A DNA stretch of 64,000 bases, from NCBI GenBank assembly GCA_026415675.1, contig JAOAGQ010000022.1:4087-68086 (forward strand). The letters run 5' to 3'. Position 1 is the first letter of the stretch. Each line of letters starts with the position of its first letter. Under the pieces are notes generated by a model. That model ran no database searches. It worked only from the letters and a program-made list of their open reading frames with translations, and was not told the origin of the DNA. Source of the stretch: Syntrophorhabdaceae bacterium (GTDB lineage Bacteria > Desulfobacterota > Syntrophorhabdia > Syntrophorhabdales > Syntrophorhabdaceae). Shown here piece after piece: positions 29,127-34,001 of this stretch. Position numbers and translations under genes: made by a program.

Positions 29127-29807
29127 TCAATCCCCGTATTCTTCAAGGTAATTCTCTATGTACTCATTCACCTTGTCGGAGGGTTGAAAGATACCGAAGT
29201 GACCCTCGCACAGGATGTCTGCCTTTAACTGGAGGAGTTTTTCCATGGAAGCCCTCCACTTTTTTATATCGGAGCCGAACTGGGGGAGAAAAGGTCCGTG
29301 GATATCCTGACCGAAGAGTACCCTTTTTTCGTCCCTGTCGAGGTATACGGATAATGAACCGGGGGTATGGCCGGGGGTATGGAGGCATCTGATCTCCTGT
29401 TCCCCTATGAAAAGGGACTCCTCTTCCTTTTCGAGTTTTAGATCAACAGATGTTGGAATAAGGGGAACCCCGTACAGATAAGCCCCTGTCATCGTTCTGT
29501 CTCCATGTTCGACAGGTTTTGCATCGAGGGAGTGCATTATAATCTTTGAACCAAATCTTTTTTTTAGTTCATAGGCCCCGCCTATATGGTCTATGTGGCA
29601 GTGGGTGAGTATAATGGTCGTGATATTCTCAGGCTTTAAACCGAGTCTCCTGATATTAAAGATCAGCCTTTCTACGCTTGTCCCTGCCCCTGTATCTATC
29701 AACACCATATCGCCGAGATTTATAAGGTATACCGAACAATCCATGGGATCTGTCAGTTCGCAATCTCCTATGAGGAACACATCTCTTATTATCTCTCTTG
29801 GGCCCAT
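29127..29807 (-). CDS. MBL-fold metallo-hydrolase
   Basis: HxHxDH motif THCHIDHIGG and a later HTPGHTPG. The start is placed at ATG 29805-29807 (MGPREII), which is preceded by AGGAGG. The track ORF extends to 29900. Confidence 0.8.
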   Translation of the reverse strand: MGPREIIRDVFLIGDCELTDPMDCSVYLINLGDMVLIDTGAGTSVERLIFNIRRLGLKPENITTIILTHCHIDHIGGAYELKKRFGSKIIMHSLDAKPVEHGDRTMTGAYLYGVPLIPTSVDLKLEKEEESLFIGEQEIRCLHTPGHTPGSLSVYLDRDEKRVLFGQDIHGPFLPQFGSDIKKWRASMEKLLQLKADILCEGHFGIFQPSDKVNEYIENYLEEYGD

Positions 29808-30037
29808 TCCAACCTCCTGTTTTACCCGTTCAGGGAGAATATGTTGGAAATTCTCCCTATCGAATTTTGCAGTATCCCCATGCGAAAAGAATAATACCAC
29901 AAAGAGAAAAAGTTTGCCTGCTTTTTCACAGGTCGTTTAGAATTCATCCCATAACCCGTTGACCAATTGGGGAGATTGTTGTAAAAATATTAGGTCTAAT
30001 AAAATGCCTCTTTTTAAATGATGAATTGGAGTGAAAC

Positions 30038-30412
30038 ATGGCAACAAAGATCAGAATTACGATTGATGGCACTTCGATTTATGCTGAGTTGTTTGATACA
30101 CCCTGTGCCAAATCAATTTTAGAAGCCCTTCCACTGGAGGCGAGACCAAACGAGTGGGGGGATGAGTTTTATTTTGAAATACCTGTTGAATACCCCCTTG
30201 ATGAAACGGCAACAACAAAGGTAAAGGCAGGGGACATAGGGTACTGGCCTCCAGGAGATGCCCTTGCCATATTCTTTGGCCCCACCCCTCTAAGCAGAGG
30301 TCAAGACCCTGTCCCTGCGAGCGAGGTTAACCTCGTTGGAAGGATACTGGATGATCCAAAAATTTTGAAAAGGGCAAAGGGGGCAAGAAAAATAAGGCTC
30401 GAAACAACATAA
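30038..30412 (+). CDS. cyclophilin-like fold family protein (TM1367-like)
   Basis: 124 aa. IRITIDG..IYAELFDTPCAKSILEALP...GDIGYWPPGDALAIFFG matches the pattern I recall for this small family. Confidence 0.55.
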   Translation: MATKIRITIDGTSIYAELFDTPCAKSILEALPLEARPNEWGDEFYFEIPVEYPLDETATTKVKAGDIGYWPPGDALAIFFGPTPLSRGQDPVPASEVNLVGRILDDPKILKRAKGARKIRLETT

Positions 30413-30527
30413 GACCGATTGACATTAAGGGTAAGCCTAAAAACATACCTCCATCCATATTTTTTATCCAAAAATTTAAGCAAATAGGAAAAAATGCGAT
30501 GATATATAAAAAATACGGAGGTGTTTT

Positions 30528-30935
30528 ATGCCCTTTATAGAATGGACGGAGCAGAATAAGACAAATGTTAAAAAATGTGATGACCAGCATAAAAAGCTAT
30601 TCGACATTGTGAACAACCTGTATGATGGAATGAAGTCAGGGCAGGGGAGGACTGTGATGGGGAACGTGCTAAATGAACTCATCGATTACACGGTATATCA
30701 TTTTAAGACGGAAGAAGACCTTATGAAAAAATATAGTTACCCCGGACTTCTCCTCCACATTAAGGAGCATGAAAATCTGATGAAAAAGGCAGGGGAGTTA
30801 AAGCAGAGGTTTGACAGGGGTGAATCCGTTATAAGCGTTGAGGTTATGGAATTCCTGAAGGAATGGCTTACAAAACATACATCCGGTTCTGACAAAAAAT
30901 ACGGACAGTTTTTAAACGGAAAAGGTGTCTTTTAG
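30528..30935 (+). CDS. bacteriohemerythrin
   Basis: 135 aa. The opening is IEW....V...D.QHK.LF and the His/Asp iron ligand spacing (HFKTEE, HIKEH, WLTKHT..SD) matches. Confidence 0.8.
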   Translation: MPFIEWTEQNKTNVKKCDDQHKKLFDIVNNLYDGMKSGQGRTVMGNVLNELIDYTVYHFKTEEDLMKKYSYPGLLLHIKEHENLMKKAGELKQRFDRGESVISVEVMEFLKEWLTKHTSGSDKKYGQFLNGKGVF

Positions 30936-30944
30936 AAAAGGATA

Positions 30945-30974
30945 TTGACTTTCTCAGAAAAAAGTGTGTATATC
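30945..30974 (+). promoter_or_regulatory. candidate promoter of the selenium-operon leader
   Basis: TTGACT (30945-30950), 18 nt, TATATC (30969-30974), immediately after the hemerythrin stop. Confidence 0.4.
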
Positions 30975-30998
30975 CATACAAGAAAGGAGGTGAAAAAG

Positions 30999-31034
30999 AT
31001 GGGAAAACCCTTTGTTCCTCTATCCTTAACGTGA
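30999..31034 (+). CDS. 11-codon leader ORF (MGKPFVPLSLT) terminating at UGA; 43 codons if UGA is decoded
   Basis: AAAGGAGGTGA Shine-Dalgarno (GGAGG 30986-30990) lies 8 nt before ATG 30999. The in-frame TGA is at 31032-31034. The frame then stays open to the TGA at 31128-31130. It is too short for the ORF track. Confidence 0.35.
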   Translation: MGKPFVPLSLT

Positions 31035-31039
31035 GTGAT

Positions 31040-31064
31040 AATTAGGCCTAGTTTAGGCCTGATT
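31040..31064 (+). promoter_or_regulatory. SECIS-like stem-loop just downstream of the leader UGA
   Basis: Perfect AGGCCTA (31044-31050), GTT loop, TAGGCCT (31054-31060). AATT/GATT extends the stem to 11 bp. The 17-nt core starts 9 nt after the UGA and has G/U in the loop. Confidence 0.5.
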
Positions 31065-31068
31065 TATG

Positions 31069-31105
31069 AAATGGAGGAAGGGGAAGGGGTGTTTCCATTT
31101 TTTTT
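31069..31105 (+). terminator. weak terminator/attenuator-like hairpin with U8 tract
   Basis: AAATGGA (31069-31075) pairs with TCCATTT (31094-31100) around an 18-nt purine-rich loop. T8 lies at 31098-31105. The stem is AT-rich and short, so function is uncertain. Confidence 0.25.
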
Positions 31106-31137
31106 GCCTCTGAGTTCTATACCTTCCTGATGTATAG

Positions 31138-31152
31138 CCCCATCCTTCCTTC
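31138..31152 (+). promoter_or_regulatory. pyrimidine tract complementary both to the leader purine tract and to the yedE Shine-Dalgarno (candidate anti-SD)
   Basis: TCCTTCCTTC (31143-31152, within CCCCATCCTTCCTTC) can form 8 bp with GAAGGAGG (31185-31192). It can alternatively form about 10 bp with GGAGGAAGGG (31073-31082). Confidence 0.35.
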
Positions 31153-31197
31153 ATAGAAAAAACATAGAAATATAGCTAAACCATGAAGGAGGAGAAT

Positions 31198-32295
31198 ATG
31201 CCAATTAAACTGTTCAGTTTTTTTGCAACAAGAGGGGGTATCATAATAGTGGGGGCGATAATAGGTATTATTGCCACAATCCTACAAAAACTGGGAAATC
31301 CCCCAAATATGGGGGTCTGCGTTGCCTGCTTTGAGAGGGATATTGCAGGGGCCTTAGGATTTCACAGGGCCTCAATCGCCCAGTATATGCGTCCTGAGAT
31401 CATAGGTTTTGTCCTGGGCTCTTTCATAGCCGCAAACCTTTTCAGGGAATTCAGAGCCCGGACCGGTTCTGCCCCTATCGTTAGATTTATACTCGGGGTA
31501 TTTGCGATGATCGGGGGCCTTGTTTTCTTGGGCTGTCCTTGGAGGGCGGCCTTACGTCTTGCCGGGGGCGATGGCAATGCCATATTAGGAATCGCAGGTC
31601 TTGCCGTAGGGATTTGGATAGGCACCCTGTTTCTTAAAAGTGGGTACAACCTCGGCAGGTCTCAGTCAACCCACACCACCGTAGGGTGGCTTATGCCGTT
31701 GACCATGCTGGGTTTTCTGATACTGATTCTTGTATTTCCCCAGATCCCGGGTCAGGATAAAAGCGGTATCCTCTTCTACAGCATAAAAGGGCCCGGGGCA
31801 TTACATGCCCCTTTGGTTATATCCCTTTTTGCCGGTCTTTTCATCGGTTTTCTCGCTCAGAGAAGTAGATTCTGTACAATGGGGGCCATCCGGGATTTTA
31901 TTCTCTTCAGGCAAACCCATCTCCTTTCAGGTCTTTTCTCTCTAATCGTTTTTGCCTTTTTTACGAACATAATACTCGGACAGTTCAACCCTGGTTTTGA
32001 GAAACAACCCATAGCCCACACGATGGCGCTATGGAATTTTATGGGGATGGTTCTCGCAGGGCTTTCATTTTCACTGGCAGGAGGCTGCCCGGGAAGACAG
32101 CTATTTCTCGCAGGAGAAGGGGACGGGGATGCGGCGGTTTTCGTCATGGGTATGATAGTGGGGGCAGGGATCTCCCATAATTTCGGTCTGGCAAGCTCTC
32201 CTGATGGTATAGGGCCTTATGGTGTCTATGGGGTTATCATAGGGCTTTTATTCTGTCTATTTATAGGCTTTACCATGAGAAAACAGATTGCATGA
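31198..32295 (+). CDS. yedE: YedE/YeeE-family putative selenium/sulfur-compound transporter
   Basis: Polytopic membrane protein with conserved Cys-containing re-entrant motifs (GVCVACF, RFCTMGA, GGCPGRQ). ATG 31198 (MPIKLF) is preferred because AAGGAGGA sits 5 nt upstream. The track start is 31183. Confidence 0.8.
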   Translation: MPIKLFSFFATRGGIIIVGAIIGIIATILQKLGNPPNMGVCVACFERDIAGALGFHRASIAQYMRPEIIGFVLGSFIAANLFREFRARTGSAPIVRFILGVFAMIGGLVFLGCPWRAALRLAGGDGNAILGIAGLAVGIWIGTLFLKSGYNLGRSQSTHTTVGWLMPLTMLGFLILILVFPQIPGQDKSGILFYSIKGPGALHAPLVISLFAGLFIGFLAQRSRFCTMGAIRDFILFRQTHLLSGLFSLIVFAFFTNIILGQFNPGFEKQPIAHTMALWNFMGMVLAGLSFSLAGGCPGRQLFLAGEGDGDAAVFVMGMIVGAGISHNFGLASSPDGIGPYGVYGVIIGLLFCLFIGFTMRKQIA

Positions 32296-32311
32296 GAAAG
32301 GAGGGATGACC

Positions 32312-32530
32312 ATGGATAAAGTGATAGATGCGAGGGGGCTTTCGTGTCCTCAACCTGTCATATTAACGATGAATGAGATAAAAAAGGTTAAGAAGGGGGA
32401 GATCGTGATACTTGTAGATACCGAAACCTCAAAAGAGAATGTGGTTCGGGCCGCAATTACAAACGGGTGGACCGTAAAAGGTATTGAGAACGAAGAAGAA
32501 GGTTACAGGATTTCCATCGTAAAGGGATGA
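32312..32530 (+). CDS. yedF: TusA/YedF-like sulfurtransferase-fold protein
   Basis: MDKVIDARGLSCPQPV carries the CPxP active-site motif of the TusA/SirA family. AAAGGAGGG lies 7 nt upstream of ATG 32312. The track ORF starts at 32288 and overlaps the yedE stop. Confidence 0.8.
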   Translation: MDKVIDARGLSCPQPVILTMNEIKKVKKGEIVILVDTETSKENVVRAAITNGWTVKGIENEEEGYRISIVKG

Positions 32531-32579
32531 CCCTCAGCCGTTCTATTTGATTAGAACCGTTTATTATGTTACAAATTAA

Positions 32580-34001
32580 ATGAGGTGGTCATTGATAGTG
32601 GAACTTCTAAGAGGGATACCGAAGACAGATGAGATTTTAAAACATACGGAATGGAAAAGGATATCGGGTCTCTATCCCGAGACGGTTATGAAAGATGCGC
32701 TAAGAGAAGTGTTGAATGGGTTGAGGGAAGGTATAAAGCAGGGGTATGTGCAGGGGATCCCCCCCTTAGAAGAAATCATAGACCGCACGGAAGAGAAAGC
32801 AAAGAGGTTTATAAAACCGGGTCTTACAAGGGTGATAAATGGAACAGGGGTTATCATCCATACAAATATGGGGAGGTCCCTCTTACCTAAATATGCCATT
32901 GAAGCGGTAATCCAGAGGGCCTCCCACTTTTGTAACCTCGAATATGACCTCGATAAGGGTTCAAGGGGGGATAGGTATGTACACTCCGTGTCCGTCCTCC
33001 AAAGACTTACAGGCTGTGAGTCTGCCCTTATAGTGAACAACAATGCCGCTGCAGTATACCTTATCTTAAACACCCTCGCAGAGGGGAGAGAGGTCGTGAT
33101 CTCGAGGGGGGAACTCGTAGAGATTGGCGGCTCTTTCCGCATCCCCGATGTGATGAAAAAAAGTGGGGCAATCCTTAAAGAGGTGGGGACAACAAACAGG
33201 ACTTACAGGGAAGATTACGAAGCCGCGATAACGGAATCAACAGGACTACTCATGAAGGTGCACACGAGTAACTACAGGATAAAAGGGTTTGTCTATGAGA
33301 CCTCAAGCGAGGATATCATAGCCCTGGCTAAAAAGTATAACCTCCCTTCATATTTTGATGCGGGAAGTGGTTTACTCTTTCCATTGCAAGGTCTGGATTC
33401 GATAAATGAGCCTTCTATTATAGAGGAGACGAAGAAAGGTTGGAGCCTGATCTCCTTCAGCGGGGATAAACTCTTAGGAGGACCTCAAGCAGGTATCATA
33501 ATTGGCGAAAAACCATATATTGATGCGATGAAGAAAAACCCCATGACAAGGGCGATGAGACCGGATAAGTTCACCCTTGCCGCTCTCGAGGCGATACTCC
33601 TTACCTATCTTGAAGGGGACAGGGCGAAAGAAAAGATTTTAACCTTAAAGATGATATACGAAGGGAAAGAAAGGATCAAAGCGCGATCGAAAAGGGTGAT
33701 AAAGTATCTTGAAGACCTGGGGGGTCACGGGAAAGCCTTCTCCATCACCTTGGTTGAGCTTGAATCCCAGGTGGGGGGCGGGAGTCTCCCGGATGTCTAT
33801 CTCCCATCGTACGGTATAGCGATAAAGCCAAAGACTATAACAATAGAGAGACTCGAGGGGATTCTCAGAGCCCTTGAGGTTCCCATAATAGGCAGGATAG
33901 AGAAGGATACCCTTCTTATAGACTTAAGGACTATACTACCTGAAGACGAACCCTATCTAATAAAAGGTTTAAAAGAGGCGATTGCAAAGGCCCTTGAGTG
34001 A
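32580..34001 (+). CDS. selA: L-seryl-tRNA(Sec) selenium transferase
   Basis: 473 aa. It has the N-terminal LLRGIPKTDEIL motif, the NNNAAAV block and the PLP-lysine motif FSGDKLLGGPQAG. Confidence 0.9.
   Translation: MRWSLIVELLRGIPKTDEILKHTEWKRISGLYPETVMKDALREVLNGLREGIKQGYVQGIPPLEEIIDRTEEKAKRFIKPGLTRVINGTGVIIHTNMGRSLLPKYAIEAVIQRASHFCNLEYDLDKGSRGDRYVHSVSVLQRLTGCESALIVNNNAAAVYLILNTLAEGREVVISRGELVEIGGSFRIPDVMKKSGAILKEVGTTNRTYREDYEAAITESTGLLMKVHTSNYRIKGFVYETSSEDIIALAKKYNLPSYFDAGSGLLFPLQGLDSINEPSIIEETKKGWSLISFSGDKLLGGPQAGIIIGEKPYIDAMKKNPMTRAMRPDKFTLAALEAILLTYLEGDRAKEKILTLKMIYEGKERIKARSKRVIKYLEDLGGHGKAFSITLVELESQVGGGSLPDVYLPSYGIAIKPKTITIERLEGILRALEVPIIGRIEKDTLLIDLRTILPEDEPYLIKGLKEAIAKALE

Follow-up and report, generated by a model that had tools for sequence, protein, structure and literature searches.

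In the ermC, cat and cmlA leaders, translational attenuation depends on a drug-stalled ribosome, and the Shine-Dalgarno (SD) sequence is sequestered by mutually exclusive helices. The trp, his and leu transcription attenuators are built of four segments, with a terminator hairpin followed by a U-run and with tandem sense regulatory codons, while in tnaC of E. coli the ribosome is held at a UGA, free tryptophan is sensed via the nascent peptide and Rho is blocked. In the 5′ untranslated region of E. coli selAB, an element resembling a selenocysteine insertion sequence (SECIS), located 3 nt from the selA SD, blocks the gene directly (PMC13449736). The bacterial regulation of selenium uptake and selenocysteine (Sec) synthesis is largely open. 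The present analysis concerns the 5′ leader of the yedE-yedF-selA operon in a 64,000-nt stretch of Syntrophorhabdaceae bacterium DNA (contig JAOAGQ010000022.1; hereafter the window, by whose positions all coordinates are given; the features described lie on the + strand). An earlier, sequence-only reading of this leader had proposed a three-part switch of a purine tract, a pyrimidine tract acting as anti-SD and the yedE SD; the helices of that layout are real, and it lacked the dominant upstream partner, so that four segments and three helices (1:2, 2:3 and 3:4) have to be distinguished. As judged by comparison of leaders, both kinds of tract, purine and pyrimidine, are genuine, jointly evolving elements of a four-segment RNA switch that lies in a selenium-uptake operon leader, and this switch probably couples UGA/Sec decoding in the leader to yedE translation. 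A probability of roughly 55% is assigned to the reading that the leader acts as a ribosome-operated four-segment translational attenuator that senses UGA/Sec decoding.

Pairing of the purine tract and the anti-SD tract

The named tracts and SDs were all confirmed by reading of the sequence. The 17-nt purine run GGAGGAAGGGGAAGGGG (31073-31089), together with its 5′ AUG flank, constitutes segment 2 (AAUGGAGGAAGGGGAAGGGGUG, 31070-31091), whose 5′ part mimics the yedE SD region and which is predicted to pair with segment 1 (OFF) or segment 3b (ON). Segment 1, the upstream partner, comprises the pyrimidine-rich leader codons 3-11 (31006-31032). Segment 3b, the anti-SD (AGCCCCAUCCUUCCUUCAUA, 31136-31155), contains the pyrimidine tract CCCCATCCTTCCTTC (31138-31152) with its core TCCTTCCTTC (31143-31152), and can pair with segment 2 or with the yedE SD. 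Segment 4 is the yedE ribosome-binding site (AUGAAGGAGGAGAAUAUG, 31183-31200), in which GAAGGAGG is located at 31185-31192, GGAGG at 31188-31192 and the ATG start codon at 31198-31200. A further tract, 3a (CCUUCCU, or CCTTCCT in the DNA; 31122-31128), overlaps the read-through stop and is predicted to serve the purine tract as a secondary partner or as a decoy.

Minimum free energy (MFE) folding of 30960-31215 was compared with 200 shuffles. The native sequence folded to -83.9 kcal/mol (z = -5.3), and 0 of the 200 shuffles were as good. In this fold the purine tract is not free, being paired upstream with leader codons (31015-31032 with 31071-31085), and the leader SD and start region (30986-31011) is paired with 31086-31111 over 25 bp. 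Overall, a hairpin of 58 bp is formed (30981-31118), with 12 G-U among its 58 pairs and a SECIS-like stem-loop as its cap; its 3′ base, which begins with UUUCCAUUUUUUUUGCCUCU (31092-31118), pairs with the leader start codon and the leader SD. A second hairpin holds the yedE SD against 31143-31154. The + strand folded to -80.1 kcal/mol compared with -63.5 kcal/mol for the - strand, and given this better energy and the 12 G-U pairs, the structure is therefore specific to the + strand.

Orthologous leaders were searched for with BLAST and a covariance model, and were found before yedE in three species of a sister genus and, in a diverged form, in another, more distant genus. To this was added a set of 160 yedE loci picked by YedE similarity regardless of leader, 151 of which had enough upstream DNA to be evaluated. 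The leader architecture was present before 45 of these 151 loci, in four sequence types: type A1 (window-like, 7 distinct sequences), type A2 (...P(F/L)SL(R/I/K/V)-UGA with two hairpins, 19 distinct sequences), type B (MY(Q/R)FFGFT-UGA, 7 sequences) and type C (...YLS-UGA, 3 sequences). Types A, B and C are unrelated in primary sequence and share the same design. From 5′ to 3′ it consists of an SD, a mini-ORF (open reading frame) of 8-12 codons ending in UGA, and one or two hairpins, the conserved one with the loop AGGUU, GGGUU or AGGCU; these are followed by a 3′ arm with complementarity to the codons of the ORF, by a tract similar to segment 1 and, last, by the yedE SD. One covariance-model match, in genome G007 (L020), was discarded as it did not adjoin yedE, and five detector matches (L077, L173, L071, L066 and L174) were false positives on inspection. 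At four loci (L028, L043, L046 and L095) the leader is located 300-340 nt upstream of yedE, and an extra conserved insert of ~100-150 nt lies between the pyrimidine tract and the SD.

On the window alone, helix 1:2 was better than 100 dinucleotide shuffles (z = -3.1, p < 0.01). In a model-fitted alignment of 10 leaders, 90.3% of the cells of helix 1:2 and the hairpin were standard pairs (shuffles 81.9%, slid controls 46-62%), and 18 of the 34 pairs were changed on both sides, a number that 0 of 500 shuffles reached (mean 8.6). Within the helix of leader codons and purine tract, compensatory changes were found in 8 of 14 pairs. A model-fitted alignment leans towards its own model, but a swap test, in which the energy of the native partner duplex is compared with that of cross-species partners, agreed with it; across all types, the native helix 1:2 reached -22.2 kcal/mol and the swapped one -14.6 kcal/mol (p < 5e-5). 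The leader ORF itself (31006-31032) is the partner to which the purine tract binds most strongly and with the best covariation. The sequence-only reading had assumed that ribosomes stopping at the UGA leave the purine tract free; by default, however, the tract is paired with the leader ORF, and stopping alone does not free it. As modelled, only ribosome occupancy of the 5′ arm releases the tract.

The purine run had also been considered as a two-tetrad RNA G-quadruplex, which would impede ribosomes or mask the tract. Although the tract of the window holds four runs of at least two G, no quadruplex was predicted with a G-quadruplex energy model, either in the full leader or in the isolated tract. 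The four runs are not retained in the relatives, which have only three G-runs or AG repeats, and the tract lies inside a covarying helix. This alternative is accordingly considered extremely improbable.

The duplex of segment 2 (31070-31091) with segment 3b (31136-31155) consists of 12 contiguous bp (AUGGAGGAAGGG/UCCUUCCUUCAU) and a further 5 bp (GGGGU/GCCCC), with an energy of -27.4 kcal/mol; the pairing of about 10 bp noticed earlier is real and turns out to be longer. Likewise, the pairing of the anti-SD with the yedE SD, first counted as 8 bp, extends to 11 bp in the MFE structure (31143-31154 with 31183-31193, -15.4 to -16.5 kcal/mol), and the output element, as expected of an attenuator, lies inside this last helix. 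Segment 2 binds 3a at -14.0 kcal/mol, and 3a becomes the partner of the purine tract in the fold with the whole 5′ arm blocked; in the relatives of genus g2, the equivalent of 3a, CCUUCCC(C), pairs instead with the leader sequence AUGGG(G)AA. When the window alone was compared with 100 dinucleotide shuffles, a kind of comparison that the sequence-only reading had named as a test, both helices were only modestly better than chance (helix 2:3, z = -1.9, p = 0.03; helix 3:4, z = -1.7, p = 0.09).

The comparative evidence is stronger. The motif UCCUUCCU of segment 3b is an invariant island in a spacer that is otherwise unconserved. Column-wise covariation of helix 2:3 in MAFFT alignments was unusable, as the A1 registers were misaligned and, because of the low-complexity tracts, several registers were equal in A2; swap tests with permutation were used instead. 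With hand-cut windows of 7 A1 species and exhaustive permutation of cross-species partners, the native duplexes were better than the swapped ones for both helix 2:3 (-24.6 vs -20.3 kcal/mol, p = 0.0008) and helix 3:4 (-16.3 vs -13.8 kcal/mol, p = 0.001). Leaving out the most divergent A1 member gave p values of 0.006 (2:3) and 0.007 (3:4), and when segment 3b was reversed, at equal composition, the native advantage was gone (p = 0.26 and 0.60, respectively). With automatically cut segments, whose limits overshot in several A2 leaders and were then tightened, helix 2:3 gave p = 0.05 in A1, p = 0.002 in A2 and p < 5e-5 in all types, and helix 3:4 gave p = 0.004 in A1 and p = 0.008 in all types. 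The RNAalifold consensus of 12 A2 leaders contained helix 1:2, both hairpins and a CCUCC:GGAGG pairing.

The species-specific flanks of the A1 helices match across all three strands. Given in the order 3b 3′ flank/tract-2 5′ flank/SD 5′ flank, they are CAU/AUG/AUG in the window, CUG/CAG/UAG in G015, CAAUC/GAUUG/UUG in L105, CUGGUAU/GUGCCAG/AUACCA in L025, UUAC/UAA/GUA in L029 and CUGA/UCAG/CAG in L149. Tract 2 and the SD region therefore mimic each other, both following segment 3b.

It might be argued that function is confined to the leader ORF, the SECIS-like hairpin and helix 1:2, for instance as the extended SECIS of a tiny selenopeptide or with some other output, and that the complementarities of the downstream pyrimidine tracts are by-products of low-complexity, SD-like sequence. 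The modest single-sequence shuffles fit such a view, as do an SD opening cost that is not unusual and the many registers in which polypurine and polypyrimidine tracts can pair. However, it does not account for the invariant 3b island in its unconserved spacer, for the native partners that beat swapped ones, or for the loss of this effect in the reversed control; in type B, moreover, the 2:3 complementarity lies in non-repetitive sequence, e.g., AGGCACAGGGUCAGGCCGAAA with CUUUAGCCUGAUUCACCUGCCUU, and no protein conservation is seen after the UGA. We consider it quite unlikely. Tract conservation, and covariation in helix 1:2, were found in the orthologous leaders, where the sequence-only reading had proposed to look for them, and the description of the anti-anti-SD, anti-SD and SD as parts of exclusive helices that co-evolve in relatives is borne out by the swap tests and the reversed control. 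The pairings 2:3 and 3:4 are convincing through comparative tests, not from the single sequence. On the sequences compared, helices 1:2, 2:3 and 3:4 are mutually exclusive and each is under selection, 3:4 being the weakest.

Leader reading frame and SECIS-like hairpin

The leader ORF (30999-31034) starts with the ATG at 30999 and encodes MGKPFVPLSLT-UGA, i.e., 11 sense codons followed by the UGA at 31032-31034. Its SD (AAGGAGGTG, 30984-30992) lies 6 nt before the ATG and within the base of the long hairpin in the MFE structure, and the GAGGTG of this SD is retained in every window-type relative. The peptide tail P-(L/F)-S-L-x-UGA (31014-31031 in the window) is common to 26 distinct type-A leaders. 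In the last five leader codons, variability is highest at the third position (1.21 bits, compared with 0.70 at the first and 0.65 at the second), and synonymous Leu, Ser and Pro changes are present within the leader ORFs. The element therefore begins, as attenuators do, with a short ORF that has its own SD and start codon and is conserved as coding sequence. In 25 of 26 type-A leaders, the UGA is followed by a purine (G or A). Judging from these sequences, this base and the conserved peptide tail could together provide a context in which the balance of termination and Sec insertion is tuned.

Beyond the UGA, the same frame runs for 31 codons (31035-31130) over the SECIS-like hairpin and the purine tract to the TGA at 31128-31130; in the window this read-through stop is at +93, within CCUUCCUGA. 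Frame 0 is the longest open frame after the UGA in 26 of 29 leaders of types A1, A2 and C, with a median open length of 81 nt (A1), 102 nt (A2) and 111 nt (C), whereas the two other frames are closed after 4-34 nt. The conserved hairpin sequence CCTAGGTTAGG has TAG in two frames, and the spacing always leaves frame 0 as the third. Among the 23 type-A2 leaders listed, 14 have the read-through stop at +102; the stop is part of a conserved CCUGAG that immediately precedes segment 3. Whatever the type, a ribosome that reads through would come to its stop on segment 2 or slightly past it, short of the anti-SD. The location of the purine tract within the read-through part of the frame, as originally described, is supported by this frame being kept open across the tract; no protein conservation after the UGA was found among the leaders compared.

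The SECIS-like stem-loop (31035-31067) is formed by AGGCCU (31044-31049), the loop AGUUU (31050-31054) and AGGCCU (31055-31060). The UGA is closely followed by it, with the stem starting 9 nt and the loop 16 nt after the UGA. In the model-fitted alignment of 10 leaders, 98.8% of the cells of this helix were paired and 4 pairs were changed on both sides. The hairpin loops in relatives are AGGUU, GGGUC, AGGCU or GGGUU. GGU-type apical loops carry the G and U bases that are contacted by SelB, as established in work on E. coli fdhF and on Moorella. The organism decodes Sec, as selA, selB, selC and selD are present, tRNA-Sec scoring 72 bits and SelB 387 bits in the same genome. SelD (G000:C13:9657-10571, L193) and FdhA (G000:C20:337-2340, L197) each contain one in-frame TGA, in the contexts GAG-U-ASK and CARL-U-HSS, respectively, and the SECIS of FdhA is textbook-like, with an 8-bp stem and the loop GGUCU starting 19 nt after the UGA. 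On the preferred reading, the leader UGA would be recoded as Sec, to which the open frame beyond it points indirectly, and the leader hairpin would be a binding site of SelB.

The hairpin could, alternatively, be a plain SelB operator as in the E. coli selAB leader, i.e., a protein-binding site for which neither leader translation nor UGA recoding is needed. The E. coli case is a precedent (PMC13449736), the hairpin caps helix 1:2, and its GGU-type loop is like the loop of the genome's own FdhA SECIS. Such an operator would not explain why four unrelated sequence types have all retained a strong SD, a start codon and a UGA whose distance from the hairpin is fixed, nor the codon-position pattern in the leader, nor the open frame after the UGA with its conserved stop position. 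In addition, the hairpin lies ~125 nt from the yedE SD compared with 3 nt in E. coli. A SelB operator of this kind is judged unlikely.

Ribosome position and the proposed mechanism

The preferred reading, a translational attenuator, would operate with segment 1 (the pyrimidine-rich codons 3-11), segment 2 (the purine tract), segment 3b (AUCCUUCCUUCAU) and segment 4 (the yedE SD). In ribosome-free RNA, helices 1:2 and 3:4 would be the ground state, with the yedE SD masked (OFF). Ribosomes on the leader ORF that wait or terminate at the UGA would make segment 1 unavailable; the freed segment 2 would capture 3b (-27 kcal/mol, compared with -15 kcal/mol for 3b:SD), and the SD would be released (ON). 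When SelB and Sec-tRNA(Sec) decode the UGA, ribosomes would pass the hairpin and segment 2 to the stop at 31128; with segment 2 covered by these read-through ribosomes, 3b would go back onto the SD (OFF). In this way, Sec-decoding capacity would feed back negatively on selenium uptake (YedE, YedF) and on Sec-tRNA synthesis (SelA). The direction of regulation, with low Sec as the ON state, was part of the sequence-only reading and is plausible, as inferred from the geometry and from physiological logic.

To mimic ribosomes, different stretches were blocked, and the ensemble opening cost of the yedE SD plus start codon was calculated. For naked RNA the cost was 11.9 kcal/mol (A1 mean) and 12.3 kcal/mol (window); with a ribosome at the read-through stop it was 10.2 and 13.5 kcal/mol, respectively, and with the whole 5′ arm held, from the leader SD to UGA+13, it fell to 4.2 and 3.2 kcal/mol. 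Holding the whole arm amounts to placing one ribosome at the UGA and a second, initiating one behind it; the 11-codon ORF just accommodates both. The modelled A1 response fits a switch, but only with the whole 5′ arm occupied. The earlier idea that ribosome position sets SD masking finds support in the A1 model when the whole arm is held, while one ribosome modelled at the UGA has no effect in the window.

Several results speak against an attenuator of this design. With a single ribosome at the UGA the A1 mean was 8.8 kcal/mol, but the cost in the window was unchanged (12.3 vs 12.3 kcal/mol), and the equilibrium SD accessibility was hardly shifted. In this state the long hairpin can, according to the model, stay closed at its base, and the contact of the freed part of tract 2 with 3b would then be a pseudoknot, which ViennaRNA cannot score. 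In type A2 the opening cost showed no response to ribosome position (8.4, 7.6, 7.8 and 7.7 kcal/mol), the swap test of helix 3:4 with automatically cut segments was weak (p = 0.085), and the low-complexity tracts pair about equally well in several registers. The SD opening cost of leader-bearing loci (mean 8.0 kcal/mol) is no higher than that of leaderless yedE loci (8.8 kcal/mol), so that the masking energy does not by itself set these loci apart. If RF2 simply terminated translation at the UGA and the ribosome were released, helix 1:2 could re-form; for the ON state, ribosomes would therefore have to linger at the UGA or follow one another densely along the leader. Finally, the window loop AGUUU keeps the GU and has one G replaced; AGGUU is the loop of nearly all relatives, with AGGAU in L149. 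Should SelB contact the second G, recoding at the window hairpin may be less efficient.

A further conserved block, UAUGAUCCAAAACCAAUUUUUUGGAAAGGAGGG, is found in A2 leaders (L122, L135, L141 and others), ~20-45 nt upstream of the yedE SD, where it can form a CCAAAA/UUUUGG hairpin abutting the SD. In terms of the folding model, this hairpin may explain why the simple calculation lacks a response in A2.

Regulation might also act on transcript elongation instead of, or besides, SD masking. Here, the C-rich, G-poor stretch from the purine tract to the SD would be a Rho loading site whose exposure is set by stopping versus read-through, as in Rho-dependent or polarity attenuation. The C/G ratio of this region is 1.8-3.7 over 72-118 nt in the window type, which leaves room for a Rho component, and for Treponema primitia fdhF a selenium-dependent link between translation and transcription at a Sec UGA is reported (PMC3892789). 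However, most of the C-rich stretch lies beyond the end of the read-through ORF, the co-evolution of 3b with the SD flank would be left unexplained, and no intrinsic terminator was found. Rho-dependent attenuation as the explanation of this leader appears improbable.

The attenuator reading may extend beyond this operon. It is tentatively proposed, at slightly less than even odds, that these leaders represent a widespread class of Sec-sensing leader-peptide attenuators, in which the ribosome, SelB, the SECIS hairpin and a single UGA would together form a sensor of Sec-tRNA(Sec), and in which stopping versus read-through would reposition the ribosome on the switch, by which selenium uptake and Sec synthesis would be set. 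The nascent P-(L/F)-S-L tail may tune the competition of RF2 and SelB at the UGA.

Operon setting and comparison with known systems

The regulated unit, yedE-yedF-selA, is located at 31198-34001 and was identified by the profile scores of its products: YedE (TIGR04112) with 486 bits, a YedF-like TusA domain with 55 bits, which is under the curated cut-off of 110 bits, and SelA with 566 bits. A promoter-like element (TTGACT, a 17-18 nt spacer and GTATAT/TATATC) was recognized by reading of the sequence at 30947-30975, and TTGAYT-17-TATWAT occurs at equal distance before the orthologous leaders in L009, L010 and L011; a simple promoter scan did not list the TTGACT element. From its position, the transcript probably starts near 30982. 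No intrinsic terminator was detected on the + strand within 30400-31400, and none 3′ of the leader element. A Rfam scan of 29500-33000 at E up to 10 gave chance matches only, none of which reached the gathering score of its family; the best one, snoR135 (23.7 bits compared with a cut-off of 45, E = 0.11), was clearly spurious. A repeat or mobile-element origin of the long inverted repeat was excluded, as the 2.56-Mb genome contains just one copy of the element.

A bacteriohemerythrin gene (157 bits) lies at 30528-30935 and ends 12 nt upstream of the TTGACT of the leader; no terminator was detected between this gene and the leader promoter. Many yedE loci that have no UGA leader share a conserved promoter region that lies ~40-90 nt before yedE and whose -35 box is surrounded by repeats, e.g., ATATCGATTTGACATATAGATAATATCTATG (L026, L030, L034, L035, L041, L042, L044, L076 and others). 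By their arrangement, these repeats resemble a transcription-factor operator and may represent an alternative regulation of yedE.

Literature searches, including Lin et al. 2015 on YedE, returned no description of a UGA/SECIS leader before yedE. If the proposed mechanism is true, this would be the first amino-acid-type attenuator for the 21st amino acid, one that reads Sec-decoding capacity at a UGA; it would explain the regulation of ~30% of the sampled yedE operons, and it would offer a natural, compact reporter of Sec-recoding efficiency.

Compared with the ermC, cat and cmlA leaders, the yedE leader likewise has a short translated upstream ORF and exclusive helices, one of which holds the SD, and ribosome position would decide between them. 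It differs in that UGA recoding by SelB and Sec-tRNA(Sec), not drug stalling, would be sensed, and in that a ribosome could stop at either of two places, the UGA or the read-through stop, and would cover a different segment at each. With the trp, his and leu attenuators it shares the logic of helices 1:2, 2:3 and 3:4, a segment 1 within the leader ORF and a supply of charged tRNA that would be read by the ribosome; unlike them, it has no terminator hairpin, its helix 3:4 masks an SD, and its regulatory codon is a stop/Sec codon. In tnaC, too, the time that a ribosome spends at a leader UGA controls downstream genes, but tnaC has neither a SECIS nor an SD-masking helix. In T. primitia fdhF (PMC3892789), decoding of a Sec UGA is reported to determine downstream expression, as it would here, although that UGA lies inside the selenoprotein gene, whereas the yedE operon has a dedicated leader with switch helices. 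The leader of E. coli selAB is alike in placing a SECIS-type hairpin before a selA-containing operon, with negative feedback by the Sec-decoding complex on Sec synthesis. The E. coli hairpin, however, is not preceded by a translated ORF ending in UGA, and the combination of a hairpin abutting the SD with no UGA ORF is not what the yedE leader presents: its hairpin, ~125 nt upstream of the SD and after an in-frame UGA, would act via alternative helices.

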